Source of the DNA: a virus
Virus record (IMG/VR): IMGVR_UViG_3300045136_000267
Reading direction: 5' to 3' (one strand)
DNA: 64,000 nt
Shown: positions 1,025-43,810 of the stretch, piece after piece
Layout: each line of letters starts with the position of its first letter
How positions within the stretch are numbered: the first letter of the stretch is position 1
Position numbers and translations under genes: made by a program
The notes under the pieces: model-generated
The model's input: only the letters and a program-made list of their open reading frames with translations
Database searches by the model: none
What the model was told of the DNA's origin: nothing

Positions 1025-1504
1025 ATGATTGATTCTGATTTCGAAATTATAGAACGAAATCTGAATAGTAGATTTATTTGTCGTAGTTCTTCTGTATATG
1101 GAGATTTAGCAAAAGTAATTTCTGTAGAGACTATACATAAATTGCATAACGGAGAACCTGTAACTATTTATGTTTGTCTCACCAGATACTTTTATCCTTG
1201 CATATTTATCTCTGATTCGAGAAAGGCTAAAGATTATTTATTAGATAAGAAAGCTAAATTAGAACTGACTATAGAGGAAAATGAATACTTTTCACAACGT
1301 GATGTATGCGTTTTTAATTCATTTATCATTTCTCTAAGCCCGCTTCATATGTCAGTTGATGATTTGATAGCCCATATTGGAGATATAATCAGCAATATTA
1401 CTGATTGTATAATTTATGTAATTAATAATAGAACTAAAGATACATTAGACTGGAGACTGGATTGTGTAACAAATGGAAAATATGGCATAAATAAGTGGAC
1501 GTGA
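1025..1504 (+). CDS. hypothetical protein
   Basis: ORF track 920..1504; ATG 1025 follows aaggaag and lies after the terminator. Confidence 0.6.
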   Translation: MIDSDFEIIERNLNSRFICRSSSVYGDLAKVISVETIHKLHNGEPVTIYVCLTRYFYPCIFISDSRKAKDYLLDKKAKLELTIEENEYFSQRDVCVFNSFIISLSPLHMSVDDLIAHIGDIISNITDCIIYVINNRTKDTLDWRLDCVTNGKYGINKWT

Positions 1505-4559: not shown

Positions 4560-4570
4560 TCCTGGGGCGG

Positions 4571-5014: not shown

Positions 5015-5031
5015 CCGCTCGGTGTCCCACT

Positions 5032-7970: not shown

Positions 7971-8044
7971 GCGCTGGTGATGCTGTGAAAGTAAATTGTA
8001 CCCCTTTGCTGCTATTGCTATAAAGAGCAAAAATCAGAAAAACT

Positions 8045-8296: not shown

Positions 8297-8339
8297 TTAA
8301 AATTTATGGCATAAACTAAAAAACAGGAGCAGTAATAAA

Positions 8340-8699: not shown

Positions 8700-8777
8700 A
8701 TTTAAGTTCATCTGTAGCGTTGTAATATGATCGTTTCTCCTATTCTTTACAAAGAACTTTAGATAACTTGGTGTTTT

Positions 8778-9299: not shown

Positions 9300-9358
9300 T
9301 TCTGTCTTTTAATGCGCTACAATCCAGTCCTAATCTTTAAATTATGTAACAAATTTGA

Positions 9359-9462
9359 GGCATAAATAATTGAAAAAAGATAATAAAATAAAAAATCCTA
9401 CTAAATTTGTAGGATTTTTCCTATTCAGGATTTAGTCGTAAATATACGGCATAAATAGATGG
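9359..9462 (+). promoter_or_regulatory. two promoter-like motifs flanking a hairpin
   Basis: ggcataaataattg (9359), aaaaatcctac/gtaggattttt hairpin (9391-9419), ggcataaatagatgg (9448). Confidence 0.45.
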
Positions 9463-26857: not shown

Positions 26858-28072
26858 ATGGATTTGCTACATTTGTATTTAACTAAATATGCTAAGAAAG
26901 CAGCGGATGGAGGTGAACGTAGTTTAGATGCTCTCTCGTCTTCTGTAGGAATGGAATCTGATTCGGATACTACTGATTCTGCTCCTGCGGCTGGAGGTCT
27001 CTCGACAGGTACTAGAGGCGCTACAGCAGCTACTACTGGAAGCACTGCTGTAGGGCCTGCTACTGGAAGTCCTGCTGCAGGTACTGCTGTAGGGCCTGCT
27101 ACTGGAAGTCCTGCTGCAGGTACTGCTGTAGGGCCTGCTACTGGAAGTACAACTGCAGGTACTGCTGCCGGTACTACTGGAAGTACAACTGCAGGTTTTA
27201 CACCTACCTCTGTAGCCGGAATTACTTCTCTTGAGCATATTCCTCCTTTTATTCTTTATGAATTAATTAATGAAGTTCTTCGTAGAGATTATAATAGTGG
27301 GTATAGAAACCCAATGCAATTTCGTCACGAAGAAATGAAGAAAGTAGACGAAGTGGCTAGAACAGCCTTAGATGAAGTCTTTAAGTCATTGCCTGAAATA
27401 GATAATCCAATAAACAACATATTAAAGGATGCACGGAGAGAACGGGAAGAACTTATGCGCCGTGGGGCACAAGCTGTGCTAGATTCTTATGCGGGTTATC
27501 GTACTTTGCAGGCAGCTCGTGGAATATATCCTAGAAATCCAGAAGCGGCTAATGTTCTTCAGAGTGAAAAACGTAGAAGGATCTTGGAACAAAGAATGTA
27601 CAATCATACTCTTGTTGCAAAGGAACGAGAAGCACACATTCAGGCTCTAGCACAGACTGTAAAAGGCTTAAAAGAGACAGCTCCTGTTCCATCTTTTGAC
27701 GAAGTATTTGACTATGCTAAGCTTATAGTTCCAAACACCTTTGGGATAACAGGTTATCCTAATAAAGCGAGAGCAAATGTAATACTAAAAGATTTAGCGC
27801 GTTATGCAGCACTTAGAGAAGATCCTGATTCTGAAGGAGTAGTTAATGGTGTAGCTGCTGCTCTTGATAGACTAAAGAGCGGGCCCGTATCTCAAGTAGG
27901 AAGAGCAAGAGATGAATATATTGTTGAAAGGGGCCTTAAGTATCTATCAGAGAAGTCTAACCTTAATGAAACTACCCTTATGAATGTATTTGGGGCTGGC
28001 AATTCTGAGTATAAGCATGTTGTAGCAAATGTCGTTCGTGATGCTGAAACGAGAAGGAAACTAGGCCTTTAG
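26858..28072 (+). CDS. Cys-free virion-candidate protein with K-x-A leader and repeats
   Basis: YAKKAAD; TAVGPATGSPAAG repeats; no Cys. Confidence 0.7.
   Translation: MDLLHLYLTKYAKKAADGGERSLDALSSSVGMESDSDTTDSAPAAGGLSTGTRGATAATTGSTAVGPATGSPAAGTAVGPATGSPAAGTAVGPATGSTTAGTAAGTTGSTTAGFTPTSVAGITSLEHIPPFILYELINEVLRRDYNSGYRNPMQFRHEEMKKVDEVARTALDEVFKSLPEIDNPINNILKDARREREELMRRGAQAVLDSYAGYRTLQAARGIYPRNPEAANVLQSEKRRRILEQRMYNHTLVAKEREAHIQALAQTVKGLKETAPVPSFDEVFDYAKLIVPNTFGITGYPNKARANVILKDLARYAALREDPDSEGVVNGVAAALDRLKSGPVSQVGRARDEYIVERGLKYLSEKSNLNETTLMNVFGAGNSEYKHVVANVVRDAETRRKLGL
27044..27196 (+). repeat. 39-bp coding tandem repeat
   Basis: actgctgtagggcctgctactggaagtcctgctgcaggt twice plus partial copies. 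Confidence 0.9.
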
Positions 28073-28096
28073 TACTAAACCTGCTTCTGACTAACA

Positions 28097-28597
28097 ATGG
28101 AGTCGATTATGGACACCTTGACTGATAAAATGTTAAACATCTATTGTACTAATACAAAAGAAGCTCCTTTCGTCAAAACAGCATACGGTCCCCTTCTCTA
28201 TGCGTTAGCTGGCGCTGCTCCTGTTCTTTTAGGTATGTTTGGAGATTATATTTCTTATGGAGTGAAACGCTGGCTTGGGGACCCAAATGTATGGGAAGCC
28301 GAACGTGTGGCTAATTCCTTAGAGGGTCTCCCAGAGCCTTATAAGAGAGCTGCTAGATCTTTTGCTGCTGCTGGAATCAATCCTTTGCAAGCCTTAGGCT
28401 CGGCAGGAATTAATATATTTGATCCAGAAGCATCAATGTTACAAAGTCAAATAGCAAAGGCACAAGGTCAAGCTGCTTTGGAGAATACGCGAATGAATAG
28501 CGCGCTTGCTAAACTGCAATTAGTTAGACAGCTCGCTCCCCAACGTACAGATCCTGTTTCTGAATTTATGACTCTTATGGAAAAGTTAGTGTCATAG
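28097..28597 (+). CDS. virion-candidate membrane protein with K-x-A leader
   Basis: FVKTAY directly followed by GPLLYALAGAAPVLLGMFG; only Cys lies in the leader. Confidence 0.65.
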   Translation: MESIMDTLTDKMLNIYCTNTKEAPFVKTAYGPLLYALAGAAPVLLGMFGDYISYGVKRWLGDPNVWEAERVANSLEGLPEPYKRAARSFAAAGINPLQALGSAGINIFDPEASMLQSQIAKAQGQAALENTRMNSALAKLQLVRQLAPQRTDPVSEFMTLMEKLVS

Positions 28598-28611
28598 AAG
28601 GTAAAAAAATT

Positions 28612-29262
28612 ATGGATAGACATCTGTTAGATAAAATTGACAATGGATGGAAATCTAGTAGATTATTATTTTTTCTCAGCTCTAAGCTGAATCCAGATAA
28701 AGTAGTTAAAACCGCCAGTCTTGTTTCTGACTCTGACGCTGCTAATTCTAAATATATTTGTGAAAAGATATTTGAGCGCTGTGATACTATCGGTGAATTC
28801 TTATTTAGTCATTATATGACTAAAAATGCTGAATACGTAACAATACCAGACTGCGATGATTATGTTAGAAAATCTTTTGCTCATTATATTAAGAACGTTA
28901 AAGAAGCAGGAGGATCCCTAGTCAATGATCCCTTTATCTCTGCTGTCTTGGGTGAGAAGAATGCTAAATACCTGGATAATAGGGTAGACTCTGAAATCAA
29001 GAATAATGAATATGATGGAATGTATCCTGCTTCTGTCTCTAAACTTGCTATGATTAAAGGTGCTTCTGAATCTTTTATTGATGAATGGAAGAAATTAGAG
29101 CCTGCAGATAAACTTGCTACTTTGCTAGGACTGCCTCCTAAGACTTTTCAAAAGAAGGCAGAGGATGAAATACTGCAAGATTTGTTAACTACTGTGGGTA
29201 AATTCTCTAATATTTTAGCTTTCAGTCTAATAGGTACTAAACCTCAAGCAGAAGAGAAATGA
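28612..29262 (+). CDS. K-x-A-rich head-core candidate
   Basis: VKTAS, TKNAE, VKEAG, SKLAM, QKKAE. Confidence 0.6.
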   Translation: MDRHLLDKIDNGWKSSRLLFFLSSKLNPDKVVKTASLVSDSDAANSKYICEKIFERCDTIGEFLFSHYMTKNAEYVTIPDCDDYVRKSFAHYIKNVKEAGGSLVNDPFISAVLGEKNAKYLDNRVDSEIKNNEYDGMYPASVSKLAMIKGASESFIDEWKKLEPADKLATLLGLPPKTFQKKAEDEILQDLLTTVGKFSNILAFSLIGTKPQAEEK

Positions 29263-29798
29263 AGAAATTATCTGAATTAGATTTAAGTCAACTCTTAGCT
29301 GGTACCACTGATGACTCTATAACGATCTCGGAAGGATTGGATATGAAATCCTTTCCTAATGAGAAGATACAATCTCAGTTTCTTTTAGTGCTAATGGATG
29401 CAATTGCAGATAGACTATTTTCTTTGAAAACTAGATATTCAGAAAATGCTATTTTAGCGGCTATCAAGTCAATATTTGAAGATGATCCTAATGAATTGGC
29501 TAAATCATTAATAGAAGAAAACCTAAGTAAAATTCAGGTTGATAGCGAAGGTTCTAATACATCCATTACAAACTATGAAACTTGGGAACAAGTTGATAAA
29601 CCTGGTAAATGGGATAAATTCCTTTTATTTCTAGGAATAGCTCCTTGGTACGCTCCGTCGTTAGAAACTTATTTCGGGGAAGATGAAGATTCCCTAGGTT
29701 TGTTACTGAAATCTATAAATACAGGCTATTTAGATCCACTTGTTTTGAAAGATGAATTAAAAGGCAAATCAGAAGATAATGATTCGAGACTTCAATGA
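29259..29798 (+). CDS. acidic hypothetical protein
   Basis: 179 aa, overlapping start/stop; no Cys. Confidence 0.65.
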   Translation: MKKLSELDLSQLLAGTTDDSITISEGLDMKSFPNEKIQSQFLLVLMDAIADRLFSLKTRYSENAILAAIKSIFEDDPNELAKSLIEENLSKIQVDSEGSNTSITNYETWEQVDKPGKWDKFLLFLGIAPWYAPSLETYFGEDEDSLGLLLKSINTGYLDPLVLKDELKGKSEDNDSRLQ

Positions 29799-29991
29799 GT
29801 TAGAAGAGACGTTGACTGATATTAAATCTAAACTATTGTATACCTATAATTTTAAGAAGTATGGTGGCGATACTTATCTAGCCATAAAAGAAACGTTGAA
29901 GACGTTAAATGATAAGTCTCCAGAAGAAGTTACATCAGAATTAGCTGAAGCATATTGTTATTCCAAAAATGTTAGGAACAATAAGAGCTAG
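29779..29991 (+). CDS. hypothetical protein
   Basis: 70 aa, overlaps both neighbours. Confidence 0.55.
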   Translation: MIRDFNELEETLTDIKSKLLYTYNFKKYGGDTYLAIKETLKTLNDKSPEEVTSELAEAYCYSKNVRNNKS

Positions 29992-30652
29992 GCCCAAAAG
30001 TTCAATTATTATTGTTATCCCTAACTCAGAATTATCCAATTCCTTCTCTGGAATTACGGAGGGTCTTGAAGGTATCTCTGATCTCTGTTCTTGTGACGAT
30101 CCCTTTTCTTCTTTACGTTTATTAGATGAACTAGTAAAAGTAAGACCAGCAACCAGCCTGCTATCAGATCCGTTTGGAAGATTAGGCTTCTTTGGAGATA
30201 TTATTGAACATCCTCCGGAACTATTTAATATATTTCCTAAGATATCTCCTAGGATTAAAGTAATTATTTCCAAGAAGAGACATTTTACTCCTGAGAGTAT
30301 AATTAAAAACCTACTTCCTTTCCCAGATATTATTCCTCCTGTCTTAGCTGATAATGTAAATGCTTCTTTACGTAGTACTACCTTCAAAAATATAAATGGT
30401 AAGAAAGTTTATATTGAGAAAGTAGAAAATGGCAAAGTTTGTGCTGATTTAATTCTAGGAAATGAAGATTCTAAGACTGCTTATCTTGGCATGAAATATG
30501 ATCACGGGAAGCTTTACTTAGCTATTCTCTTAGATATAGCTTCTCCTAAAGATGTCTTATCTAGATTGTCTGTTGACAATGTTAAACTTAAGAAAGTATC
30601 TAAAGAATCTCTTCTTGCTGTACTTAGCAAGTTTTTAAAAGCCAAAACATAA
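29969..30652 (+). CDS. hypothetical protein
   Basis: 227-aa ORF within operon. Confidence 0.65.
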   Translation: MLGTIRARPKSSIIIVIPNSELSNSFSGITEGLEGISDLCSCDDPFSSLRLLDELVKVRPATSLLSDPFGRLGFFGDIIEHPPELFNIFPKISPRIKVIISKKRHFTPESIIKNLLPFPDIIPPVLADNVNASLRSTTFKNINGKKVYIEKVENGKVCADLILGNEDSKTAYLGMKYDHGKLYLAILLDIASPKDVLSRLSVDNVKLKKVSKESLLAVLSKFLKAKT

Positions 30653-30690
30653 ACTAGAAATTTAATATCTTTTGGAATAATATATTACGT

Positions 30691-32427
30691 ATGCCTACCC
30701 CTGAGTCTTTAATCACACTAGGTACACCATCTACTTTAGGAACACCTTCTACTACAGGAATAGGTGTACTAGACTCTTTGTATTCTCTCTATAGAGCAGT
30801 AGCACCCTTGGCTAGCGTATTTCTGTCTGGTCAAGGGATGATGCATGTAGCACCAGATCAATCTGTAGGGGATCAAATCCAAAGACTTACTGCTCATAGA
30901 AGATCTTATGAATCTATAAAAAGGCTTCTCCCCAGTGAAATCGATGATATGAAAAATGCCATTAGAGGATTATTGATTTCCTCTGGAGTTGATAGATCAA
31001 CACTTGTACCAGGTTCTCCCGTTGAAGAGCACATAGATAGACTAGCAAGATTATTTGAAAAAGTATATCCGTTACTATTTTTCGCATATCCTAGTGCTAT
31101 TAAAGTTATAAATCCTAGATCTAAATTATTTTTAGCTAATTCATTAAATAAAGTCTTTGAAAGACTCACACCTTTCGCTTCACCAGAAGAATTAGCAGAT
31201 TTAGCAGCATCTGCTGCCACTAAAATTCTTTCAAATCCTAAATATCATCAAGGATTAGATGCTCACGAAATAGCAGAAGTTGCAGAAAAGGCTGTTAAAT
31301 TCGGTTTAGTAAGACTTGGTTCCGGTCAGCAATTTACAGATGATTTAATAGATACTATTGCAATAGTAGCTCCTGTCAGAGAAGAAGCTCTGCGTCGTGG
31401 TGGTCAGTTTTCTATTGAGAATGCTTTATCTCTAGCTAATCAAGTAGCACAGCAATTTCCTTCTGCTTCTCTTAGAGATATTGCTGTAGAAATTAGACGT
31501 AGATTTGAACTAGATGCTGCTGGAGGTGAATATAGATCTTTGACCTTAGATCCACAAGCAGCCTCCTATATTCGCCAATCTGGTGTACCAGTAGAAAAGC
31601 TGGAAAAGCAGCATGAAGAACTCAAGGAAAATGCAGTAAATTCTTACATGGGTTCTGCTATAGGGGCTATTGCTAAGGCTGTAAGAACTGGAATGGTATC
31701 TCCGAATAGTCCTGCTGGTAGGATATATCAAAATATTCAAGCTGGAGGAGTTCCTCCTATGATCTATCCACAGCATGCTTTTGAAGTTCTTGTTTCTTCT
31801 GGAATTGCCCCTGGTGTAGCTTCTATTATGTTATCGTCTCCAGAAGAAAATTCTCATTGGTTAACACCTAATGATGTCCAAGCTATAAGAAGAATGCAGA
31901 TGCAAGTAGATTGGATGCCTAGATTTCAAGCTATAGCAGCCTCTTTCCCTGGTAACGATCCCCAATCCAGAGCAGTGAGAGAAGCGATGCTATCAAAAGT
32001 AGTAGCAGATGGTGGTTATAAAAACATATACCATTTCTTAGCTCTACACGGTCCTGTATTGCAATCTATGCCACAGATCAGAGAGGTAGTAACTAGATCT
32101 GCAGTAAATAAAATGGAGCTAGCTGGTTATGATAATGCTAGCTGGGGTGGACCTGCCCGTGGAATGGCAGCATTACAAGATATCGGCTCCGGTAAGCGAG
32201 AACAGAAATTCTCCGTAGGGGATTTGGCTAGTACTGTATTCCAATTTTACAGACAACCCAAAGGACTAGATATAAACCTAGGATTGGCGACTCCTACTCC
32301 AGCTACGGAAATTAAACCTATAGATGTAATGGAAAGAAGAGATAGTATTTCTATAAGAGAAGATTCAATGCCAGAACCTGTTCTGTCAGATTTTTCTTCT
32401 ATAGGGAGATCCTTGAGTAGCGATTAA
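30691..32427 (+). CDS. Cys-free helical virion-candidate protein
   Basis: 578 aa, Ala-rich, no Cys; directly upstream of the ligase. Confidence 0.7.
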   Translation: MPTPESLITLGTPSTLGTPSTTGIGVLDSLYSLYRAVAPLASVFLSGQGMMHVAPDQSVGDQIQRLTAHRRSYESIKRLLPSEIDDMKNAIRGLLISSGVDRSTLVPGSPVEEHIDRLARLFEKVYPLLFFAYPSAIKVINPRSKLFLANSLNKVFERLTPFASPEELADLAASAATKILSNPKYHQGLDAHEIAEVAEKAVKFGLVRLGSGQQFTDDLIDTIAIVAPVREEALRRGGQFSIENALSLANQVAQQFPSASLRDIAVEIRRRFELDAAGGEYRSLTLDPQAASYIRQSGVPVEKLEKQHEELKENAVNSYMGSAIGAIAKAVRTGMVSPNSPAGRIYQNIQAGGVPPMIYPQHAFEVLVSSGIAPGVASIMLSSPEENSHWLTPNDVQAIRRMQMQVDWMPRFQAIAASFPGNDPQSRAVREAMLSKVVADGGYKNIYHFLALHGPVLQSMPQIREVVTRSAVNKMELAGYDNASWGGPARGMAALQDIGSGKREQKFSVGDLASTVFQFYRQPKGLDINLGLATPTPATEIKPIDVMERRDSISIREDSMPEPVLSDFSSIGRSLSSD

Positions 32428-32429
32428 TT

Positions 32430-34724
32430 ATGCCTCCATTTGCTGTTGGTATCCCAGATAAAGCAAATTATGGAAATATTAAAGCATTACAAGAAGGAAA
32501 CTTCTACGATCTAGTATTACAAGAACATGACGCTGAACGCGCCGGCAAACATTATGACTTTAGATTAGGAAATTCTGATATTGGTTTATTATCTTGGGCT
32601 ATACCTTCTGCAAAATTACCGGCGCCTGGGGAAAAAGTATTAGCTATCCAGCAACCTCTTCATTCCTACGATTACAGAACCTTTGTAGGAGAAATACCTT
32701 CTGGTTATGGTAAAGGTAACGTATCTCTAGCTTATTCTGGTAATGCTCTCGTTACGGCCATAGATCCTGATAAAAAGAGAATTTACTTCACCATTGCTTC
32801 TGATAGACATCCACGTAAATTCATATTACTAAAACCTGATACAGATAAATACGGTAAGGATGCTTGGCTATTAATTAATATCACTCCAAATAAGCCACTT
32901 CCTTATGCCAAGGTAAAATACCCCGTTATTGACAAAAAGAAGTTACAACAACTATTAGAGAAAGAAGACTATTTAGTTGCAGAACCTAAGATTGACGGTG
33001 CTCTTGGTTTAGTTCAACTAGGCGACAAAGGATTAGAAATCTTTGGGCATAGAATTTCCAGAGTTACAGGATACCCTATCCAATATACGGATAAGATATT
33101 CAAGACTAAACCTACTCTGAACCTTCCATTAAAGTATGCAGGAAGTATTCTGCGGGGTGAAGTTTATGCCGTAAAGACTTTACCAGACGGCTCAGAAGTA
33201 GTTGTAGAACCACAAATACTTAGTGCAGTATTAAATTCTTCTGTAAAGAATGCTTGGGATAGATTAAGAGATCTCGGTCTTAAACTTAAGATAGGATTAT
33301 TTGATATCACAAATTATGGTGGAAATCATTTAGATCCAGAAACAGTTGACTATCCCGCTAGACGTAAGATGTTACTAGAAATCTTACAATATTTACCTAA
33401 AGATACTTTTACAGTAATTCCTTATGTAGATAAGAAAGAGGACATCCTGAAATTACTCCAGGAAATAGAATCTGGGCAACATCCTCTTACAAAAGAGGGA
33501 ATAGTTGTCTACAGAAGGTATGGTTATCCATACAAATATAAAATAAGACCTGAAGAAGATGTATATATAAAAAGAATTATTCCAGGACTAGGGAAATATT
33601 CAGATTCTGCTGGTGCTTTTGAATATAGCTACACCCCTGACGGCCCTGTAGTAGGTACAGTAGGAACTGGATTTTCTGATGAATTCAGAAAATTCATGAT
33701 GGAAAATGTTGAATCTCTAGTAGGAAGACGAGCTAGGGTAACTTATCAAGAGAAGTTTCCTTCTGGCGCCTTGAGAGCCCCTTCTTTCATTGCTTTGCAC
33801 GAAGACTATCCTACAGTTCAAGAAAAGCAGGCAAGTTTTGTTCTACCAGAAGAAGATGAGAAATGGTTATTAGCCATAGACATTCTAAAGAAAGTAGATA
33901 ATTTTATTAAGAAAGGAGATGCTTCTTCTTATCTAGATATCCCTGTTTTAGAATTACCTGTTAAAGTCTATAACAATATTCAGAAGATATTAGGTGGACC
34001 TAATCCATTAACTGCTATGGCTTTAGATGCTCTTATCGGAATGGCATTAGGAGATCTAGCTGGTAGAACTTTGGAATTTGCTTTTCCTAGATTCTTTGCA
34101 GATAGCAAATTCAGAAAAAGGCTTTGGTTAGCTGGTTCTCTATTAGGTGCTTCTTTACCATTTTATATCCACGGAATTCAAAATCTCAGTACACACGGAT
34201 TAAAAGGTCTTTTAACTCCTTCTCCAATCCAAGAGGCACTGACTAAATCTGCTATTGATTATCATGCTAAGAAACTTCGAGTACTTGCTGAAGATTTAAC
34301 AGGAAAGAAAATAATAGATGATATAAATCCTGAATTCATAAAAGAAGCTTCTGTTAAATTAGCTGCTAAATTTGATGTATCTGAATGGGGTAAGACAGTA
34401 TTAGATACTGATTTATCTCCCTGGGAGAAAACTCTGTTAGTAACTGTGCCATTAACAGCTTCTATGTATAGAGGTTCTGATTGGGTAACTCCTGTTGATG
34501 TTGCTAAAGTATCTGCTAATATGGAATTAGGATCATTGTTCGGTAGGCTATTAGGTGATTTAGCCGTACCTATACTAGGTTTACCCAGGGATGTTAAAGA
34601 AGATCTACAAAGAACAGGTCGCCTTACTGGATTATTAAAAGGTTTTACTGGATCTGTTAAGAACGTATTATTAAATACTGGAGATAAGACTTATGACGAA
34701 ATCGGGAAAGCGCTACAAATTTAG
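32430..34724 (+). CDS. LigD-type 3'-phosphoesterase + ATP-dependent DNA ligase + C-terminal K-x-A/hydrophobic extension
   Basis: PE: QEHDAERAGKHYDFRL, SWAIP, LAIQQPLHSYDY, GEIPSGYGKG; ligase: EPKIDG, LRGEVY, LFDI, EGIVV, YKYK, VGTGFSD, LRAPSF. Confidence 0.9.
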   Translation: MPPFAVGIPDKANYGNIKALQEGNFYDLVLQEHDAERAGKHYDFRLGNSDIGLLSWAIPSAKLPAPGEKVLAIQQPLHSYDYRTFVGEIPSGYGKGNVSLAYSGNALVTAIDPDKKRIYFTIASDRHPRKFILLKPDTDKYGKDAWLLINITPNKPLPYAKVKYPVIDKKKLQQLLEKEDYLVAEPKIDGALGLVQLGDKGLEIFGHRISRVTGYPIQYTDKIFKTKPTLNLPLKYAGSILRGEVYAVKTLPDGSEVVVEPQILSAVLNSSVKNAWDRLRDLGLKLKIGLFDITNYGGNHLDPETVDYPARRKMLLEILQYLPKDTFTVIPYVDKKEDILKLLQEIESGQHPLTKEGIVVYRRYGYPYKYKIRPEEDVYIKRIIPGLGKYSDSAGAFEYSYTPDGPVVGTVGTGFSDEFRKFMMENVESLVGRRARVTYQEKFPSGALRAPSFIALHEDYPTVQEKQASFVLPEEDEKWLLAIDILKKVDNFIKKGDASSYLDIPVLELPVKVYNNIQKILGGPNPLTAMALDALIGMALGDLAGRTLEFAFPRFFADSKFRKRLWLAGSLLGASLPFYIHGIQNLSTHGLKGLLTPSPIQEALTKSAIDYHAKKLRVLAEDLTGKKIIDDINPEFIKEASVKLAAKFDVSEWGKTVLDTDLSPWEKTLLVTVPLTASMYRGSDWVTPVDVAKVSANMELGSLFGRLLGDLAVPILGLPRDVKEDLQRTGRLTGLLKGFTGSVKNVLLNTGDKTYDEIGKALQI

Positions 34725-35202
34725 AAATTATGAATTTTGGGCTGCTGATGGTGTTATTGCTATCCTAGATACATCTAAAGCTGGTAGTTCTAGGGAAAGC
34801 GTAGAGAATGCTACTAAATATGTATTTATCAGTGATTTTATCAAAAATGTGATAGCAGCCTACGGTATTCATTCAGCTATTGATCGGCGAGAAGCTAAGA
34901 AGATGTTAGAAGACGCTATGGAATGTGTTAAAGAAGCTAATAAGAAAGGGGATATTTCCAATCCCAAGATTTTACAGCAGAAACTAGAAGATAGTAGACC
35001 AGTTAAACTTTCTATGGCTAATTACGGTCCTAGTAGAATCTTTCCTTCTGCTAGTCCTAGACCTTTGTTTGAAAGTAATTTGCTAGGACCTTCTGGCAAA
35101 GCTTTCATGAGAAAAATATACGAATTAAGAGCATCGAATTCTGCTAACGTAGATGATATTTTTCTAAATGGAATAGATTACAATACGGTAATTACGGAGT
35201 AA
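34693..35202 (+). CDS. hypothetical protein
   Basis: 169 aa in operon. Confidence 0.65.
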   Translation: MTKSGKRYKFRNYEFWAADGVIAILDTSKAGSSRESVENATKYVFISDFIKNVIAAYGIHSAIDRREAKKMLEDAMECVKEANKKGDISNPKILQQKLEDSRPVKLSMANYGPSRIFPSASPRPLFESNLLGPSGKAFMRKIYELRASNSANVDDIFLNGIDYNTVITE

Positions 35203-35205
35203 TAC

Positions 35206-35586
35206 ATGCCTAATCCTACGAATACGCCCACCCCTGTTATAGATCATATTAGTAACTTCCTATATACTGCTATTCCAACGTCAGCTAGCTATGTAGCGAG
35301 CTACTTTCCCATAATTCATAATTTATCTGGTACCGCAATCGGTAATGCATTAGCTAATATCAGGAATACTTTTGGTTTAAGTTTTCCTTCTGTAAAGAGA
35401 AGCAAAATAATAGCCAAGGAAGTAGCACTTGCACAAAACAAGGCGAGTCTAGAAACAGCTAAAAAGCTACTTAGAGAAGAGATAAATAAATCATTAGAGT
35501 TGATAAGAAATAATAAGACCTCTGACGAAGAAGAGCAACAGACTAAATCTGCTAGTTTCTATATTAAACAGAACAAATACTTGTAA
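35206..35586 (+). CDS. virion-candidate protein
   Basis: C-terminal QTKSASF; no Cys. Confidence 0.6.
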   Translation: MPNPTNTPTPVIDHISNFLYTAIPTSASYVASYFPIIHNLSGTAIGNALANIRNTFGLSFPSVKRSKIIAKEVALAQNKASLETAKKLLREEINKSLELIRNNKTSDEEEQQTKSASFYIKQNKYL

Positions 35587-35588
35587 TC

Positions 35589-35984
35589 ATGGATGAAAAC
35601 TTCCTGAATATGCCTTTTGACCCCACTTTAGGGGGCAAGGATATATTACCTCCTTCTTTTGACACCAAATTTAAAGGTGAGCAGGATCCTAGACATGGTG
35701 GTGTATTATCTTGGCCTGGTATAGAAGGAATACCATTTAGAGGTCCAGTAGTTGACTTAAAAGAAGAAGAACGAAATAGACTCGTATTAGTCAATGATTT
35801 TAAATGTCAAACTTTTGACTTGAGTCAGCCAGAAGATAAAGAATATTATAATTGGGTTATGGATAGAATTTGTAATGGTTTATTTAAATGTCTGTATATC
35901 AATAGAATGTGGAATAATGAACATAAAACTATGTTAGTATATGTAGAATGGGTTCAATCCTACTACGAGCACAGGGATAAATAA
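35589..35984 (+). CDS. hypothetical protein
   Basis: 131 aa; Trp/Tyr-rich C-half. Confidence 0.65.
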   Translation: MDENFLNMPFDPTLGGKDILPPSFDTKFKGEQDPRHGGVLSWPGIEGIPFRGPVVDLKEEERNRLVLVNDFKCQTFDLSQPEDKEYYNWVMDRICNGLFKCLYINRMWNNEHKTMLVYVEWVQSYYEHRDK

Positions 35985-36929
35985 ATGTTAGGTGGTCTTA
36001 GTTTTACAGCTAAAAACTTGGTTCCACTAATAATTACAGGTGGACTCTTTACATACGTTCTTAACGACTATCAAAAGCGTAAAAGAAAATCTAGTATAAG
36101 TAAAGAAGTATCTTACGATATTGATGCAGAATATCTTGAAGACTTATACGGAGTCGATATTCCTACTATTGATGAATTTACTAATATAGAAACTAATTCT
36201 TTATCCAAGAAAGGGTCATTTGATTTTTGGCCGTTTAGAAAGCCCAGTCTGTTTGAGAGTCTATTATCTAATGCAGACAGTTATGTTCTTAAAATGATTT
36301 TACCTATAACTATAGTAGGTGGAGCTGCCGCTTTATTCGGTTATTTCAAGAATAAAAAAGATTACGAGAATATTAAAGCAGAATCTAAGGAAGTAGAAAA
36401 AGAATTAGATGAAGTATTAACTAATACTTGGCTTCTAGCTAAAGAACGTCAAAAGTTATCTAAGAAAGCTACTTGGCAAGCAGCATTACTTCCGCTAGCT
36501 ACTATAGCAAGTGTTATCGCATCTCCTTTTATAACTTCTAAGATTATGGATTGGACTGGAGGATACGGTGCTTTATTAAGAATGTATCTCTTAGGTAATA
36601 CTATAGGCAAAGCGCAAGAAACTTATGCTGCTAAGACTAAAGAAGTGGAATCTGATGAAGATATGATTGAAAGCTATGCTCAGATTGCTGGTACTAGACT
36701 AAGTGATGTGCAAGCTCTAAACAAATTCTCTATTAGCTTGATGAAGAAATTGAATAGATTAGCAGCAATGGAATCTTCTCCACAGAAAAATACCAGAAGA
36801 ACTCCTATAGTCAAGAATTTTACTCCCGAGAATAAACTCGAATCTGAGCATAAGCTAGAAGAAACTGCTACTAAAGAACATAAATCTTCTGTCAGCCTTG
36901 AAGAATTATTTAATGAACAGAAAATTTAA
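35985..36929 (+). CDS. Cys-free virion candidate with several hydrophobic segments
   Basis: three hydrophobic segments; SKKGSF and SKKATW. Confidence 0.65.
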   Translation: MLGGLSFTAKNLVPLIITGGLFTYVLNDYQKRKRKSSISKEVSYDIDAEYLEDLYGVDIPTIDEFTNIETNSLSKKGSFDFWPFRKPSLFESLLSNADSYVLKMILPITIVGGAAALFGYFKNKKDYENIKAESKEVEKELDEVLTNTWLLAKERQKLSKKATWQAALLPLATIASVIASPFITSKIMDWTGGYGALLRMYLLGNTIGKAQETYAAKTKEVESDEDMIESYAQIAGTRLSDVQALNKFSISLMKKLNRLAAMESSPQKNTRRTPIVKNFTPENKLESEHKLEETATKEHKSSVSLEELFNEQKI

Positions 36930-36931
36930 TT

Positions 36932-39900
36932 ATGCAGACATTAGCTAGGCCTGTTCAAGAACTTGAAGAATTGAATCCTGATACCTTTAAGTCTGTAGAT
37001 ACATCTCCAACGTTACCTACTATTACTGACATTCCCAAGAATTCTATAGCAGTAGATGACATTCAAGCAATCAGACATAAAATCTTTGATAATGTACTTA
37101 AAACATTATCTTCTGCTCCAGCACACGCTTATGGTAATTATGTTCTTAAATTAGAGAATCTTAAATATGCTGACCCTGATAAGTTTTCTATTCAAGACGA
37201 AAGAGATGCAATTATTAAAGGTAATTCTCTTACTAGAAGACTAGTAGGCGATTATGTTCTTATTGATGCCAAGACTGGGAAAGAGATAGCTAGAAGAAAG
37301 CAGTTAGTAGCTAGAGTACCTTATCTTACTAGTCATGGATCCTTCATTTTCAATGGAAATGCTTACAGTATTGCCAATCAACTACGTTTAAAGCCTGGCG
37401 TCTTCATACGTCTCCGTGGTGATGGTAATGCAGATACTTTCGTAAATACTGTCAAAGGATTGACTCATCATTATACCCTTGACCCTGAAAAGGGTATATT
37501 CTACATGTCCTTTGGTAATGTAAATATTCCACTATTTACCGTTCTAAAAGCACTCAACGTCCCTGATGAAAAGATTCTAAGTGCTTGGGGTCAGAAACTA
37601 TATGCTTCTAACGCCGCTGCCGGAGCTAAAGCTAACATTGCTAAATTATTTAAGAACAGATTATCTCCAGAACAGATAAATCAAGCTCTTCCTAAACTAT
37701 TAGAGAGCATGAAGTTAGATCCAACAGCTACCCAGCTAACTATTGGTATTCCTGCTACCCATGTCACTCCAGACGTAATGCTTGAAGCTACTAAGAAAAT
37801 GCTAAAAGTATGGAAGGGAGAAGCAGAAGCTGATGAGCGTGATGCTTTACACTTCCAGAAAATAGCAGGAGTAGAACATTTAATTCCAGAATATGTATTC
37901 AGAGCACATCAAGGATTACGTAAGTTCATTCCTAGAGCTGTAAGAAAGAATTTCGATTTAAGCGTTATCCCTAGTAATTATTATTGGACAGGCATCTCAG
38001 ATTTACTTCTCGGTAGTGGCTTAGCCGAGATTTTGGAAGAAATTAATCCCACTGAGACCCTCGATAGACTATACAGAGTTACTAAGTTAGGCGCCGGTGG
38101 TATTGAACAAGTAGAAGCCGTACCAGAGGAAGCTAGATCTGTACATCAGACCCACATGGGTTTTATAGATCCAGCAGTAACAGGTAAGTTAAAGCGAGTA
38201 GGCGTAGATTTAAGACTTGCATATCTTACTAGGAGAGATGAGAACGGTAAACTTTATACAGTATTTAAAGATGTAAAGTCCGGTAAATTCGTATGGCGTT
38301 CTCCAGAAGATCTCATTAATGCCGTAGTAGTTTATCCTGGTGAAATGGATAATAAAGATAATTATGTATTGGGATCTAAGAACGGCAGAATTAGATATTT
38401 CAACAGAGAAGAAGTAGATTACGAACTACCTTATGGGGAACAATATTTCAATACAATTACTAATTTTCTACCTGCACAAGGAACAACCTTCCCCCAACGT
38501 ATCATGATGGGTCAGCAAATGCATTTGCAGGCCCTTCCATTAATTAATGCTGAAGAACCTCTAGTTCAGGGGAAGCTACCTAATCAAGATAACTCTTTCC
38601 AAAGAGCTGCATATAAATATTACGGTGTAGTTAAAAGTGATGTAGATGGAATAGTAGAATCTGTAAGTCCTAATAGAATAGTTGTCAGAGACAAAAGATC
38701 TAATAAGAAAACTGTATACGAATTATACAATAATTTCCCTTTCAATAGAAAGACGTTCATTCATAACACCCCAGTAGTTAAAACAGGGGATGAAGTATAC
38801 AAGAACCAATTATTAGCGACTTCTAATTTCTCCGATAAGAATGGCAATCCCGCTTTCGGATTAAATGCTTACATAGCATTTTTACCTTATCGTGGTTACA
38901 ACTATGAAGATGCTTACGTGGTATCTGAATCTTTTGCTAAAAGATTAAACTCTGAACATATGTATCAAGAAACTCTGGATATAGCTCCAAACATAATCAC
39001 TGGAAAAGATGCTTATAAAGCGGCGTTTCCAGGTAAGTATTCAGAGGAATTTTACAATAACTATGATGAAAATGGATTCTTAAAACCAGGTAGAAAAGCT
39101 ATTAAAGGACAACCATTAATTTTAGCTGTAAAATCTGCAGATCCGGGTAGAATAGGAGCAAAAAAGAAGATACTTTCTGATGCATCTATTATTTGGGATC
39201 ATGAAAATCCTGGTGTAGTAATAGATACTCATAAAGGAAGAGACAATCTTTATATCAACATTAAGTCTAATTCTTTAGCAATTGAAGGAGACAAGTTAAC
39301 CGGTAGATTTGGTGACAAGGGTGTAATCGCTAGGATCATTCCTGATAGTGAAATGCCTAGAGATAGTCTAGGCAGACCCTTTGATTTACTAGTTAATCCT
39401 CTAGGACTAGCTACTAGAGGTAATATGGGGCAAATCTATGAGGCTGTTCTAGGTAAAATTGCCGCTAAAAATAAGAAACCTGTATTTGTTCCAGCCTTCA
39501 TGAGCGACTATTACGTTTTTGCTGATAATATGTTGAAGGCCAATAGGGTTTCCCCCACAGATACTGTTTATGACCCAAAATTTGGCACATATATTCCTAA
39601 TGTTTTAACTGGATATAAATATGTGATGAAATTGCATCACATGGCAGAATCTAAGTTGCAAGAAAGAGAGACTGCTGAATATACAGCAGAAGACATGCCT
39701 GCTAGAGGAGGTAAGACAGGGGCAAAATATATAGGTTTCTTGGAATTGATGGGTATCTTAGGTCACAATGCTTTCAATGTTATTAGAGATGCCAAGTTTG
39801 TTAGAGGACAAAGAAATGACAGATTTTGGCTAGATTTCATGCGTGGTGCTACTCCCACAGTCAATACATCAACATTGGTTTATGATAAATTTGTAAACCT

Positions 39901-41335
39901 ATTAAAAGCTGCAGGTATAAATATAGAAAGTAACAACGACACTTTGAATCTTTTCGCCCTTACAAACTCTGATATCGCTAACCTGACTGCAGATAGGGTA
40001 ATTAGAAATCCAAATACTGTTAAAGTATTACGTGATGATGTTAAGCCAATAACAGGCGGTTTATTTGATCCGACTATTACTGGAGGTCTAGATGGTAGGC
40101 ATTGGAGCTATTTTGAATTATCTGAACCATTTCCAAATCCAGTAATGGAAGATGTAATTCGTACATTATTGGATTTAACAGAGAAAGATTACATTGACAT
40201 TCTAATAGGAAAGAAAACTCTTGAAGGTTCAAATAAATTAGGGCCAGAAGCCCTTAAGGAAGTCTTATCAGAATTTAATGTTGATAAAGAACTAGATACA
40301 GCTATTCGCAATTACAAAGTAGCTCCTGCTAGCAAAAAAAGTGCTTTGATAAAGAAGATTAGATATCTACGGGCTATAAAGCAAACTAATCAAAAGCCAG
40401 AAGAATGGTTCTGGACGAGAATGCCTATTATTCCACCAATCTTTCGTCCAGTCTCCTTAACTAATAAAGTAATAACGGTAGCTGATGTTAATGCTTTGTA
40501 TCAAGATTTGTATGAAGCTAATGAAATATTAAATTCTCAGAAGAAATTCATGGAAAATCCATCAGAAGCTAGACTTGCTGTCTACAACGGCATGAAGGCT
40601 GTAGCAGGAATAGGTGATCCTATTCAAGTTAAACATAAGCAGCAGGGGTTAAGGGGTTTATTACAGCAGATAGTAGGTACCAGGTCTAAAACAAGCTATG
40701 TAATGCGTAAGCTTATTGGTATAACTACTGACTTGGTAGGTAGAGCTGTAATCATTCCAAATCCTGCCTTGGATATAGATCATGTAGGTATTCCCATAGA
40801 AATGGCCTGGACTTTATTCAGGCCAGTAATAATAAGAAATCTGACTAAACGCGGACTTTCTCTAGTAGATGCAATAAAAGCATATAATGATAAATCTAAA
40901 TATGCAGTAGATGCGTTACTAGAAGAGATAAATAACAGGGTAGTTATAGTAAATAGAGCGCCAGTACTGCATAGATATGGTGTAATGGCATTTAAGCCAG
41001 TTCTTACAAAGAATAAAGTAGTAGAATTCAATCCTCAAATAACGTCAGCTTTTGGAGCAGACTTTGATGGTGATGCTGTTCAAGTACATCTTCCCATACT
41101 TGATGAAGCTCAAAAAGAAGCTAAGATGAAAATGCTACCATCAAAGAATTTATTCTCTTCTGCTAATTTTGGACTGTTATATCCTCCGATTAGAGAGTAT
41201 GCTTTAGGTTTATGGCTGGCAACAGCTTACGAAGATAAAACTAAAAAACCTGTAAGGTTTAAATCTATTGGCGACCTACTTAAAGCATATAATAGAGGTG
41301 AAATTACAATAAATACGCCAGTAGAAATTGGTTAG
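36932..41335 (+). CDS. phage multisubunit RNA polymerase: beta fused to N-terminal half of beta'
   Basis: beta: GSFIFNG..QLRLKPGVF, GYNYEDA, GDKLTGRFGDKGVI, KLHHMAESK; beta': GGLFDP, PIIPPIFRP, NRAPVLHR, catalytic GADFDGD (41054-41074). Confidence 0.95.
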   Translation: MQTLARPVQELEELNPDTFKSVDTSPTLPTITDIPKNSIAVDDIQAIRHKIFDNVLKTLSSAPAHAYGNYVLKLENLKYADPDKFSIQDERDAIIKGNSLTRRLVGDYVLIDAKTGKEIARRKQLVARVPYLTSHGSFIFNGNAYSIANQLRLKPGVFIRLRGDGNADTFVNTVKGLTHHYTLDPEKGIFYMSFGNVNIPLFTVLKALNVPDEKILSAWGQKLYASNAAAGAKANIAKLFKNRLSPEQINQALPKLLESMKLDPTATQLTIGIPATHVTPDVMLEATKKMLKVWKGEAEADERDALHFQKIAGVEHLIPEYVFRAHQGLRKFIPRAVRKNFDLSVIPSNYYWTGISDLLLGSGLAEILEEINPTETLDRLYRVTKLGAGGIEQVEAVPEEARSVHQTHMGFIDPAVTGKLKRVGVDLRLAYLTRRDENGKLYTVFKDVKSGKFVWRSPEDLINAVVVYPGEMDNKDNYVLGSKNGRIRYFNREEVDYELPYGEQYFNTITNFLPAQGTTFPQRIMMGQQMHLQALPLINAEEPLVQGKLPNQDNSFQRAAYKYYGVVKSDVDGIVESVSPNRIVVRDKRSNKKTVYELYNNFPFNRKTFIHNTPVVKTGDEVYKNQLLATSNFSDKNGNPAFGLNAYIAFLPYRGYNYEDAYVVSESFAKRLNSEHMYQETLDIAPNIITGKDAYKAAFPGKYSEEFYNNYDENGFLKPGRKAIKGQPLILAVKSADPGRIGAKKKILSDASIIWDHENPGVVIDTHKGRDNLYINIKSNSLAIEGDKLTGRFGDKGVIARIIPDSEMPRDSLGRPFDLLVNPLGLATRGNMGQIYEAVLGKIAAKNKKPVFVPAFMSDYYVFADNMLKANRVSPTDTVYDPKFGTYIPNVLTGYKYVMKLHHMAESKLQERETAEYTAEDMPARGGKTGAKYIGFLELMGILGHNAFNVIRDAKFVRGQRNDRFWLDFMRGATPTVNTSTLVYDKFVNLLKAAGINIESNNDTLNLFALTNSDIANLTADRVIRNPNTVKVLRDDVKPITGGLFDPTITGGLDGRHWSYFELSEPFPNPVMEDVIRTLLDLTEKDYIDILIGKKTLEGSNKLGPEALKEVLSEFNVDKELDTAIRNYKVAPASKKSALIKKIRYLRAIKQTNQKPEEWFWTRMPIIPPIFRPVSLTNKVITVADVNALYQDLYEANEILNSQKKFMENPSEARLAVYNGMKAVAGIGDPIQVKHKQQGLRGLLQQIVGTRSKTSYVMRKLIGITTDLVGRAVIIPNPALDIDHVGIPIEMAWTLFRPVIIRNLTKRGLSLVDAIKAYNDKSKYAVDALLEEINNRVVIVNRAPVLHRYGVMAFKPVLTKNKVVEFNPQITSAFGADFDGDAVQVHLPILDEAQKEAKMKMLPSKNLFSSANFGLLYPPIREYALGLWLATAYEDKTKKPVRFKSIGDLLKAYNRGEITINTPVEIG

Positions 41336-41358
41336 TCTTTTTTATTAGGAGAGTTTGA

Positions 41359-41952
41359 ATGAAAGGTTCTCATTTATTTCAATTAGATCCTAATGCTTTC
41401 ATGAAGGCTTTAGCTAAATTAGCTTCCGAAAAGAACGCCTTTGTTCCTCCTGGTGGCGGTGCTCCTCCTGGTGCTCCTCCTGGAGGTATGCCTATGGATC
41501 CTGCCATGATGGGTATGGCAGCTCCTCCCGGTGGTGGTGCTACTCCAATGGATCCTGCCATGATGGGTATGGCTCCTCCGCCTGGAGGTATGCCTATGGA
41601 TCCATCAATGATGGGTGGCGGGGCTCCTCCTGGTGGAGGCGCTCCTCCTCCGATGGGCGGTGGGCTTCCTCCGGAATTGATGCAGTTATTAGCTTCTCCG
41701 CCCGGCGGTGCTCCTGAGTCCACTGATAATTCTGGCGCTCCTGGCTCTGAAGTCGGTGAGGAGCAAGGTACCGGTACTTCTACCAGTACTCTAATGGAAA
41801 TGAAACCCGAAGAGTTCAAAACCTTAGTGATTGATGCTGTAGAAAAAGGTTTCGCTAATTCTGCAGATTCAATGTTAAGGGTACTAGAAGATATTAGAGA
41901 TGCTTTAACTAATAAGGCTGGTACTTCTAGAGGCGAGAACGAGAACCTCTAA
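41359..41952 (+). CDS. Gly/Pro/Met low-complexity protein between the RNAP genes
   Basis: PMDP(A/S)MMG repeats; N-terminal AKLASEKNAF. Confidence 0.75.
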   Translation: MKGSHLFQLDPNAFMKALAKLASEKNAFVPPGGGAPPGAPPGGMPMDPAMMGMAAPPGGGATPMDPAMMGMAPPPGGMPMDPSMMGGGAPPGGGAPPPMGGGLPPELMQLLASPPGGAPESTDNSGAPGSEVGEEQGTGTSTSTLMEMKPEEFKTLVIDAVEKGFANSADSMLRVLEDIRDALTNKAGTSRGENENL

Positions 41953-41959
41953 TTAATTA

Positions 41960-43810
41960 ATGACTACAGCAGGTGCTGTTTTAATAAATGCAATATTACC
42001 AGAGGATATAAAAGTATCTGGTACTTTAGACGTAAAAGAGATAAGGGCTCTTTTGTCTAAAGTAGCTCAGAAGTATCCAGATAAATTTCCAGAGATTTCT
42101 TTGAAGTTAGGGAACTTGGGTGCCGATTTTGCATATCGGCACCCAAAGTCTTCTTTTTCTTGGGAGGAATTAGCTCCTACATACGAATTAGATAATCTAA
42201 GAAAAGATTTATATTCTAAAGTTAGAGAAATAATTTCCGATTCCACTACAGACTGGGATAAAAAGTCTAGTAAAATAATAGATATAGTATCTAAATATGA
42301 TGATCTCTTCTTGGAAAAAACCAAAGAGATATTGAAACAGAGAGGTGGGGCTCTTTACGGTCAGTCTTCTTCTGGTACTAGAGGTAAACCTGTAGATATT
42401 AGAAGACTTCTAACGGGTGATATTCTCTACGTAGATCATAAGAATCGACCTATTCCTGTTCCAGTATTACGCGGTTATTCAATGGGTCTAAGACCAAGCG
42501 AATACTGGCTAGCAACTTTCGGCGCCAGAAAAGGATTCGTGACTACGAATCTTGGAACAGCAGATGCTGGGTACCTAAGCAAACAATTAACTAATGCTGC
42601 TCATAGACTTATAGTCACTGCTGTTGATTATAAAGGTAAGGATCCACTACCTATTGGATTACCAGTAGATACTTCAGATCCTGATAATGCTGGTAGCTTT
42701 CTTGCCGCAGATGTAGGCGGCTATAAACGAAATACTTTATTAACTCCAGAGATATTAGCTGATTTGAAAAATAAAGGTTTTAACCAGATTCTTGTCAGAA
42801 GCGTTTTAACCAAAAGACTACCAGGTGGTGGAGTAACTGCTAAAGATGTTGGATTAATGGAAAACGGTAGAATGTTAAGCCCAGGGGATATGATTGGAAT
42901 AATTGCTTCTCAATCTCTAGGTGAACCTGTAACACAAATGGTTATTGGGGCTAAACATTCTGGTGGTACTTCTAAGACTAAGATAGACATTGGTTCTTTG
43001 ATTCTAGCTTTGCAAGTACCCAAACAATATAGGGGAGCTGTACATACCGACAATGCAGGTACTGTTAAAAACATTACGGATGCTTCTGCTGGTGGTAAGA
43101 TTGTTACCATTGATAATGAACAGTATTACGTACCTCCGCAAGAAGAAGTAAATGTAAAAATTGGTGACTTTGTAGAAGCTGGTGATCCTATTAGTTCTGG
43201 AATTCCAAATATTTCTAAGTTAGTACAGCATAAAGGCATTGGAGAAGGTAGAAGGAAATATGTAGAATTATTAAGAGATATTTATAAGCAAACAGGTTTT
43301 AATATAATAAGAAGAAACTTTGAAATATTAGTTTCTGGATTAATAGATCATGTAAAATTAACTCAACCCATAGGGAATTACATTCCTGGAGATGTGGTAT
43401 CTTACACGTGGTTAGAATCTAAGTGGACACCACGGGAAGGTAGTAAATGGATATCAGTAGATAAAGCTGCAGGAAAATATCTAGAATTGCCAGTTTTACA
43501 TTATACTATCGGAACAGCTATTGCACCATCTATGGTGAAAATATTAAAACAATTTAATATTGACAATGTTTTAGTACATGACGATCCTCCGCCATTTGAA
43601 CCTTACATGGTTCCGGCTGCTAAAGTTATTGATTATGATCCAGATTGGTTAGTACGATTTTTAGGTGGTACCTTTGGACAGAAGAGAAGCTTAATAAAAG
43701 CTGTTAGTGAGGGACATAAGAGTGAGATTTTCTCTACTTCTTATGTACCTCCTTTCGTTACCGGGAAAGCATTTGCCACGGAGTGGCCTAAAAAGATTCT
43801 GCAAAGTTGA
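41960..43810 (+). CDS. phage RNA polymerase beta' C-terminal half
   Basis: SGTRG, bridge helix GARKGFVTTNLGTADAGYL, trigger loop SQSLGEPVTQM..KHSGG, RNFEILV. Confidence 0.93.
   Translation: MTTAGAVLINAILPEDIKVSGTLDVKEIRALLSKVAQKYPDKFPEISLKLGNLGADFAYRHPKSSFSWEELAPTYELDNLRKDLYSKVREIISDSTTDWDKKSSKIIDIVSKYDDLFLEKTKEILKQRGGALYGQSSSGTRGKPVDIRRLLTGDILYVDHKNRPIPVPVLRGYSMGLRPSEYWLATFGARKGFVTTNLGTADAGYLSKQLTNAAHRLIVTAVDYKGKDPLPIGLPVDTSDPDNAGSFLAADVGGYKRNTLLTPEILADLKNKGFNQILVRSVLTKRLPGGGVTAKDVGLMENGRMLSPGDMIGIIASQSLGEPVTQMVIGAKHSGGTSKTKIDIGSLILALQVPKQYRGAVHTDNAGTVKNITDASAGGKIVTIDNEQYYVPPQEEVNVKIGDFVEAGDPISSGIPNISKLVQHKGIGEGRRKYVELLRDIYKQTGFNIIRRNFEILVSGLIDHVKLTQPIGNYIPGDVVSYTWLESKWTPREGSKWISVDKAAGKYLELPVLHYTIGTAIAPSMVKILKQFNIDNVLVHDDPPPFEPYMVPAAKVIDYDPDWLVRFLGGTFGQKRSLIKAVSEGHKSEIFSTSYVPPFVTGKAFATEWPKKILQS

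Follow-up and report, generated by a model that had tools for sequence, protein, structure and literature searches.

To our knowledge, zinc sites have been taken to be a constant part of every cell-type RNA polymerase. In bacterial enzymes the flap-tip helix places region 4 of sigma for recognition of the -35 box, and this helix and the zinc-binding domain together line the RNA exit channel. The nearest cultured relatives of the enzyme described here are encoded by Salmonella phage Arash (gp206 and gp216, with the sigma factor gp10; OQ632216.1, PMC10585845) and by Vibrio phages D69, D148 and D181. Of the proteins detected in purified Arash particles, gp206 ranked first in abundance, and gp216 and gp10 were found as well (PMC10585845). 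Even the divergent non-virion enzyme of phage phiKZ still has a zinc finger, located in gp74 (PMC8287921). In N4-like phages the ejected proteins, the virion polymerase among them, show a conserved suppression of cysteine (PMC11445570; also PMC3821669), and it has been suggested that this trait stems from their passage across the periplasm (PMC11445570). Here we describe a multisubunit RNA polymerase specified by a 64,000-nucleotide stretch of viral DNA, IMG/VR record IMGVR_UViG_3300045136_000267 (the window), that has lost both zinc sites, the flap-tip helix and all cysteine residues. It belongs to a very large phage family that as a whole is without zinc sites and flap-tip helix and apparently without alpha, yet has retained a true sigma. 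With moderate confidence we regard the system as a virion-carried holoenzyme, in which a zinc-free two-chain polymerase and the phage's own sigma would be delivered with the DNA.

The finding consists of three genes that run in one direction on the + strand, P0001, P0002 and P0003 (Table 1). P0001 was found to encode beta fused to the N-terminal half of beta', with the Pfam domains RNA_pol_Rpb2_6 (beta, E 9e-52) and RNA_pol_Rpb1_2 (beta', E 2e-25) in this order, and its top PDB matches were to bacterial beta (E 1e-59) and to the N-terminal half of bacterial beta' (E 5e-48) and not to phage structures. P0003 was found to encode the C-terminal half of beta' (Pfam RNA_pol_Rpb1_5, E 5.5e-29; PDB match to bacterial beta', E 4e-31). 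Each of the three domains exceeds the Pfam cut-off, and the break in beta' falls near residue 570 of the E. coli subunit by alignment to RpoC. The two chains add up to 2083 residues and are about 25% smaller than beta and beta' of E. coli taken together (2749). The bacterial-type core motifs, including the DxDGD triad, the beta GDK...GxKG lysine motif and the bridge helix, could be aligned. An AlphaFold2 model of P0001 residues 540-1140 reached a predicted local distance difference test score (pLDDT) of 82 from 62 sequences, with bacterial beta chains as the closest folds (E 2e-32), and a model of P0003 reached 85. By these matches, the enzyme is a bacterial-type two-barrel (double-psi beta-barrel) multisubunit RNA polymerase in two chains. 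The alpha family was not found among 59 other open reading frames (ORFs) of the window by Pfam, and its domain PF01000 had no matches in four complete IMG/VR relatives and the Arash record; host alpha could still serve the phage polymerase. These five related records each contain one polymerase set, and the phage family has, as judged from the complete relatives, no further RNA polymerase. Beta has also diverged in its rifampicin-pocket region (window 37900-38100, P0001 residues ~350-385), with D516E, H526R and S531T relative to E. coli, and because these positions are changed the enzyme is suggested to be insensitive to rifampicin.

Residue changes in beta' were read from a MAFFT alignment to E. 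coli RpoC, and the flap was read from an alignment to RpoB. A preliminary description of this locus, made from the letters alone, had reported the loss of both zinc sites and apparently of the flap-tip helix, and all of the peptides that it quoted were located where it had placed them. At the first zinc site, a deletion of about 32 residues was found to cover the N-terminal zinc-binding domain of beta' with its ligands C70, C72, C85 and C88, and the AlphaFold2 model contains no inserted domain at the former position of this domain. At the second site, the four ligands are replaced by Tyr, Lys, Thr and Asp (Table 1), and the reported loss of both sites was thus confirmed. The alignment to E. 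coli could have relocated the missing elements, but no cysteine is left with which to build a Cys4 site, as the 2083 residues of the two polymerase chains contain none. Because of this absence, movement of a Cys4 zinc site to another place in the polymerase is impossible. Given the window's mean cysteine frequency (0.73%), polymerase and sigma taken together should contain about 17 cysteines (P ~3e-8). The segments that formerly made up the second site have a pLDDT of 85-95 in the P0003 model, a value that reflects model confidence and says nothing on metal independence.

In IMG/VR, P0001 had no hits when scanned for close relatives, and a profile scan did find relatives. At least 829 fusion homologues of similar length and with the same Pfam domain set were detected, many of them on contigs of ~200 kb, as were at least 336 homologues of the C-terminal half. 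Among 112 intein-free fusion homologues (42-60% identity), 14 cysteines were counted in 164,550 residues and 101 of the 112 had none; 100 C-half homologues, with inteins excluded, had 3 cysteines in 63,171 residues, none of which was at a zinc position. The cysteine frequency across the family is thus about 0.005-0.009%, the same order as in the ejected proteins of N4-like phages. The deletion of the zinc-binding domain was present in all family members displayed and in Arash. At the C814 position no cysteine was found in the 100 homologues, whereas Arash keeps it, and the typical family sequence at the second site, from about ten aligned members, is VRSPxVGGPxxGGVYARDVG. Arash gp206 has a single cysteine and gp216 has exactly four, which are the ligands of the second site. 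Because Arash lacks the zinc-binding domain yet holds these four residues, a stepwise purge is suggested, in which free cysteines and the first zinc domain would have been lost earlier, and the second site later in the branch that includes this phage. Taken together, the alignments indicate that the zinc-site, flap-tip and motif traits are family-wide and not peculiar to this phage. The literature covered, which included few subscription journals, contained no description of the family beyond the Arash paper; the family was found to be very large and known from the literature through Arash only.

Several homologues were observed to be 300-450 residues longer than the others, namely the fusion homologues P0024, P0026-P0028 and P0109 and the C-half homologues P0184, P0223, P0234 and P0245, and the longer homologues bear intein or homing-endonuclease Pfam domains. 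Cysteines were counted in five of these long members, four of the fusion and one of the C-half; each has 6-12, far above the intein-free relatives. Thermophily was considered as a reason for the loss of cysteine and was rejected, as relatives from many different samples share the trait and other proteins of the window do have cysteine.

The flap tip was found to be reduced to a basic loop, as the preliminary description had proposed from the string KSADPGRIGAKKK (nucleotides 39131-39169). It is 15 residues shorter than in E. coli and has no counterpart of the helix LLRAIFGEKA (E. coli 901-910), and the AlphaFold2 model of P0001 540-1140 shows at this place a three-residue turn only and no helix (pLDDT ~66). 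At the alignment positions of P0001 735-750, the flap segment has 14 residues here, 12-17 residues in the 112 homologues and 22 in Arash, and its mean net charge across homologues is about +3. The shortening of the beta' clamp helices (Table 1) is likewise common to the family homologues. The catalytic motif reads GADFDGD for the NADFDGD of E. coli, that is, N458G with the Asp triad retained. The D-x-D-G-D pattern is invariant in all 112 homologues, and the first position of the motif is occupied by G in 99 of them, by N in 9 and by A in 4. The trigger loop has lost the MRTF segment (M932I, R933G, T934A, F935K) and has kept Q929 and H936, and both of these observations had been made at the outset. 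Among 100 homologues, Q929 and H936 are invariant, R933 is lost and position 935 is K or R in every case; no SI3 insertion was found in the trigger loop by alignment to RpoC. A dead pseudo-enzyme was rejected, as the family throughout keeps its catalytic residues unchanged.

The same preliminary description had pictured a minimal zinc-free enzyme that starts transcription without sigma70, through an unknown factor or DNA structure. The first part of this picture stands, with no cysteine, no zinc sites, a vestigial flap tip and the reduced size; the second part is not supported in that form, as a gene of the sigma70 family is present. This gene was read on a Logan contig that extends 4.4 kb beyond the window. 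Its product scored above the Pfam cut-offs for Sigma70_r3 (41.1 bits, cut-off 25.3) and Sigma70_r4 (28.6 bits, cut-off 24.1) and had no match to the Pfam model of region 2; residues 30-233 aligned with regions 2-4 of SigA/SigB (E 1e-7). By this alignment, the protein is a member of the sigma70 family with regions 2, 3 and 4. No sigma family was found by Pfam or PHROGs among the 59 other ORFs of the window, where almost no families could be named. One orthologue each, covering region 4, was detected in 4/4 complete IMG/VR relatives and 23/23 other large contigs (27/27), as well as in Vibrio phage D69, and a second sigma was not detectable in the four complete relatives. The closest Arash protein was gp10 (E 9e-16). 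A second, more canonical sigma was observed in the Arash/D69 branch (Arash, L007:1114-2220; D69 record, 133652-133825), with Sigma70_r2 matches of E 1e-11 and 4e-8, and was not detected in the four complete relatives from the branch of this phage.

The pairing of sigma with the polymerase was modelled by complex prediction using sigma residues 12-244 and P0001 residues 676-1440 as input. The predicted complex reached an ipSAE of 0.62, compared to 0.00 for the best of three controls; among solved complexes 58 of 80 attain this mark, and among mismatched pairs 2 of 110 do. At least 82% of contacts were common to the runs, the partner had a pLDDT of at least 73, and the predicted contacts of lowest error were between sigma 49-65 and the clamp helices (P0001 1173-1219). 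Because sigma-polymerase complexes have been solved, resemblance to them may lie behind the pass, and the prediction supports binding of sigma to the phage clamp helices without proving it. For the region 4 helix-turn-helix and the flap no confident contact was listed, and, as unlisted residues count as uncertain, no conclusion was drawn from this. The phage-encoded sigma70-family protein is most likely the initiation factor of the polymerase, a partnership that we infer to hold in vivo, and independence of the polymerase from host sigma70 is plausible.

The originally proposed start without any sigma, through a phage factor or a DNA structure as in the non-virion polymerases of phiKZ/AR9 or the virion polymerase of N4, would fit an enzyme that has neither flap-tip helix nor zinc-binding domain and whose clamp helices are shortened, as well as the conserved protein without known function that is encoded between the polymerase genes. 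Against it stand the phage's own sigma gene, found here and in 27/27 relatives at one per genome, the predicted position of sigma on the phage clamp helices and the presence of the Arash sigma relative in the particle alongside the polymerase, and we consider it very improbable. Alternatively, the host polymerase might be the enzyme that the phage sigma redirects, with the phage polymerase relying on some other factor, for example the protein encoded by P0002. Such phage sigmas are common (PMC7824862), and region 4 is intact here while the phage flap tip that would hold it is missing. Against this, sigma strictly co-occurs with the polymerase, both are devoid of cysteine, the predicted interface is with the phage clamp helices, and the two are found together in Arash particles; a role of this sigma with the host enzyme instead of the phage enzyme thus appears very doubtful.

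Candidate promoters were found in the window. The 15-mer GGCATAAATAAKTGG was found in seven copies at up to two mismatches, all on the + strand and ahead of genes, over a span of 623-9462. At up to three mismatches, 15 matches were counted compared to 4.6 expected, a number that was attained in none of 100 shuffles. No -35-like element was shared upstream of the seven best copies. The core of the 15-mer resembles the T4 late promoter TATAAATA. We infer that the phage polymerase would read GGCATAAATAAKTGG as a promoter, and these promoters may be single-element, in which case the canonical geometry of region 4 would be dispensable. GC-rich hairpins were observed directly after several copies of the 15-mer, and such structures would also suit the sigma-independent start discussed above.

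The gene between the two polymerase genes, P0002, encodes a protein with a helix at either end (LAKLASEKNAFVPPGG at the N-terminus), for which no Pfam or PHROG match was found. Of 78 related loci in IMG/VR, 52 have a similar ORF of 200-260 residues in the corresponding place, and a profile built from 42 of these ORFs had P0002 as its sole match in the window, at an E value of 1.4e-5 to be read in view of a strong composition bias. P0002 is a candidate polymerase-associated or packaging protein. As a tentative extension that we think possible and rather less probable than the virion-carried holoenzyme itself, the holoenzyme might have relinquished its zinc-domain contacts and those between flap tip and region 4 entirely, and sigma might be held by region 2 and the 3.2 linker only, with region 4 free or docked anew, 15-bp promoters that need no -35 element, and the Pro/Met-rich protein acting as a new subunit or as a tether by which the zinc-free enzyme is loaded into the capsid for ejection.

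Table 1. Coordinates of the polymerase genes, their altered sites and associated features. Positions refer to the window unless a contig is named.
Feature	Sequence, residues or size	Position	Strand	Basis
Beta fused to N-half of beta', P0001	1467 residues, no cysteine	36932..41335	+	Pfam, PDB matches
Flap tip, basic loop	ADPGRIGAKKKI, P0001 736-747, 12 residues	39137..39172	+	RpoB alignment, AlphaFold2
Deletion site of beta' N-terminal zinc-binding domain	GGLFDPTITGGLDGRHWSYFEL, P0001 1042-1063	40055..40120	+	RpoC alignment
Beta' clamp helices, predicted dock of sigma region 2	P0001 1173-1219, ~12 residues shorter than E. coli	40448..40588	+	alignment, complex prediction
Catalytic motif	GADFDGD (E. 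coli NADFDGD)	41054..41074	+	RpoC alignment
Pro/Gly/Met-rich protein, P0002	197 residues, PMDPAMMG repeats, no cysteine	41359..41952	+	ORF
C-half of beta', P0003	616 residues, no cysteine	41960..43810	+	RNA_pol_Rpb1_5, PDB
Second zinc site, first ligand position	VTAVDYKG, C814 to Y	42614..42637	+	RpoC alignment
Second zinc site, other ligands	VRSVLTKRLPGGGVTAKDVG, C888K, C895T, C898D	42794..42853	+	RpoC alignment
Trigger loop	GEPVTQMVIGAKHSGG, TQMVIGAKH (E. coli TQLTMRTFH)	42920..42970	+	RpoC alignment
Sigma70-family protein	256 residues, no cysteine	L009:13810-14580, start 3295 nucleotides past window end		Pfam, SigA/SigB alignment
Candidate single-element promoter, best copy	GGCATAAATAAKTGG	1484..1498	+	motif count
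Other copies of the 15-mer	GGCATAAATAAKTGG	starts 623, 4306, 4737, 7071, 9359, 9448	+	motif count
HK97-type capsid candidate	308 residues, no cysteine	55409-56335	+	Atlas feature score 0.98, HK97-fold major capsid clusters

The neighbourhood of the polymerase genes bears on whether the enzyme travels in the particle. A candidate gene for an HK97-type capsid protein, for which the sequence libraries gave no name, lies 11.6 kb downstream of the polymerase genes on the same strand, and this arrangement would put the polymerase genes in a late virion block. An Atlas look-up of a 578-residue ORF (30691-32427), a candidate for the portal, returned nothing. Across window positions 26858-43810, all seven ORFs of at least 197 residues are free of cysteine (404, 578, 764, 314, 1467, 197 and 616 residues; the ORF of 764 residues is a LigD-like phosphoesterase-ligase), and the large ORFs that flank this stretch have 4-13 cysteines. 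The cysteine-free stretch may mark a set of co-delivered proteins.

An alternative is that polymerase and sigma are partners that are not packaged but made after infection for middle and late genes, with the host enzyme reading the early genes and the lack of cysteine having some other cause. With a single set per genome, the polymerase must serve later genes as well unless the host enzyme does so, and many other proteins of the window are also devoid of cysteine. The polymerase is, by contrast, the most abundant protein of Arash particles, the genes lie within the late virion block, and the purge of cysteine is extreme, is seen in relatives from many samples and matches the trait of ejected proteins; we therefore consider an unpackaged enzyme unlikely, though less so than either of the alternatives for sigma set out above.

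Several points weigh against the virion-carried holoenzyme. The Arash particle preparation also held ribonucleotide reductases (PMC10585845), and for this reason co-purification is no proof of packaging. The Arash polymerase was found in particles and still keeps its second zinc site, so that loss of zinc is not needed for packaging. The capsid protein and several further ORFs of the window have no cysteine either, and the trait is thus not confined to ejected proteins. Region 4 of sigma is conserved family-wide though its usual docking helix is missing, and the commonness of phage sigmas that serve the host polymerase (PMC7824862) applies to this sigma as well. Packaging in the particles of this large, uncultured phage is considered probable by extension from Arash and the N4-like phages.

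From the observed sequence anatomy, its family-wide conservation and the co-occurrence with sigma, we nevertheless favor the virion-carried holoenzyme and propose the following course. A purge of cysteine would have done away with both the zinc-binding domain at the N-terminus of beta' and the second zinc site, with the catalytic parts (Asp triad, beta lysines, bridge helix and trigger-loop His) being kept. Transcription would most likely start with the cysteine-free phage sigma, region 2 of which would rest on the shortened clamp helices. Region 4 would probably be out of the canonical position for reading a -35 element, with neither the flap-tip helix nor the zinc-binding domain left. The holoenzyme would probably be packed in the particle, delivered with the DNA and used to read early promoters, because its genes are among late virion genes and the purge of cysteine is a published hallmark of ejected proteins. 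The loss of both zinc sites would then be a by-product of fitting a multisubunit enzyme for packaging and ejection.

If so, the rule that ejected phage proteins avoid cysteine would be widened from the single-subunit polymerase of N4-like phages to a multisubunit enzyme, and the avoidance of cysteine could serve as a marker of virion-delivered proteins that needs sequence only. If purified, the enzyme would provide a small two-chain holoenzyme model free of metal sites and a direct test of the roles of the zinc domain and the flap tip. What sets this finding apart is that a stunted flap tip goes together with a sigma whose region 4 is intact, and that a conserved gene for a Pro/Met-rich protein lies between those of the polymerase.

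Compared to known systems, the enzyme has its best sequence and fold matches among bacterial core/sigma70 holoenzymes (E. coli, T. thermophilus and Clostridium), with which it shares the Asp triad, bridge helix, trigger-loop His, clamp helices and a sigma with regions 2-4. It differs from these in its lack of zinc sites and flap-tip helix, in the absence of alpha from the five related records, in a beta' C-terminus whose omega-binding part is not conserved, and in the joining of beta to a split beta'. The polymerases of Arash and of Vibrio phages D69, D148 and D181 likewise join beta to the N-terminal half of beta' in one chain and keep the C-terminal half apart (31% identity across 95% of the fused chain). 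Shared with them are the point of the split, near residue 570 of E. coli beta', the loss of the zinc-binding domain, a related sigma and a near-absence of free cysteine. By contrast to the phage described here, Arash keeps the Cys4 residues of the second site, has a longer flap tip (22 versus 14 residues) and longer clamp helices, carries its polymerase genes nine genes apart and has a second, more canonical sigma. A tblastn search of 25 neighboring ORFs against the Arash and D69 loci returned nothing, and apart from the polymerase no common gene order with Arash could thus be shown. The phiKZ- and AR9-like jumbo phages similarly encode two-barrel enzymes without alpha or omega, one form of which is virion-borne (PMC7598289, PMC13282480). 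Their beta and beta' are, however, each split, with two sets per genome and no sigma homologue (PMC7824862), whereas the enzyme described here is much nearer to bacterial enzymes, is present as one set per genome and has a true sigma. With the virion RNA polymerases of N4-like phages (N4 gp50, DEV gp71) it would share ejection and the suppression of cysteine (PMC11445570, PMC3821669), although these are single-subunit, T7-like enzymes of unrelated fold that do not need sigma.

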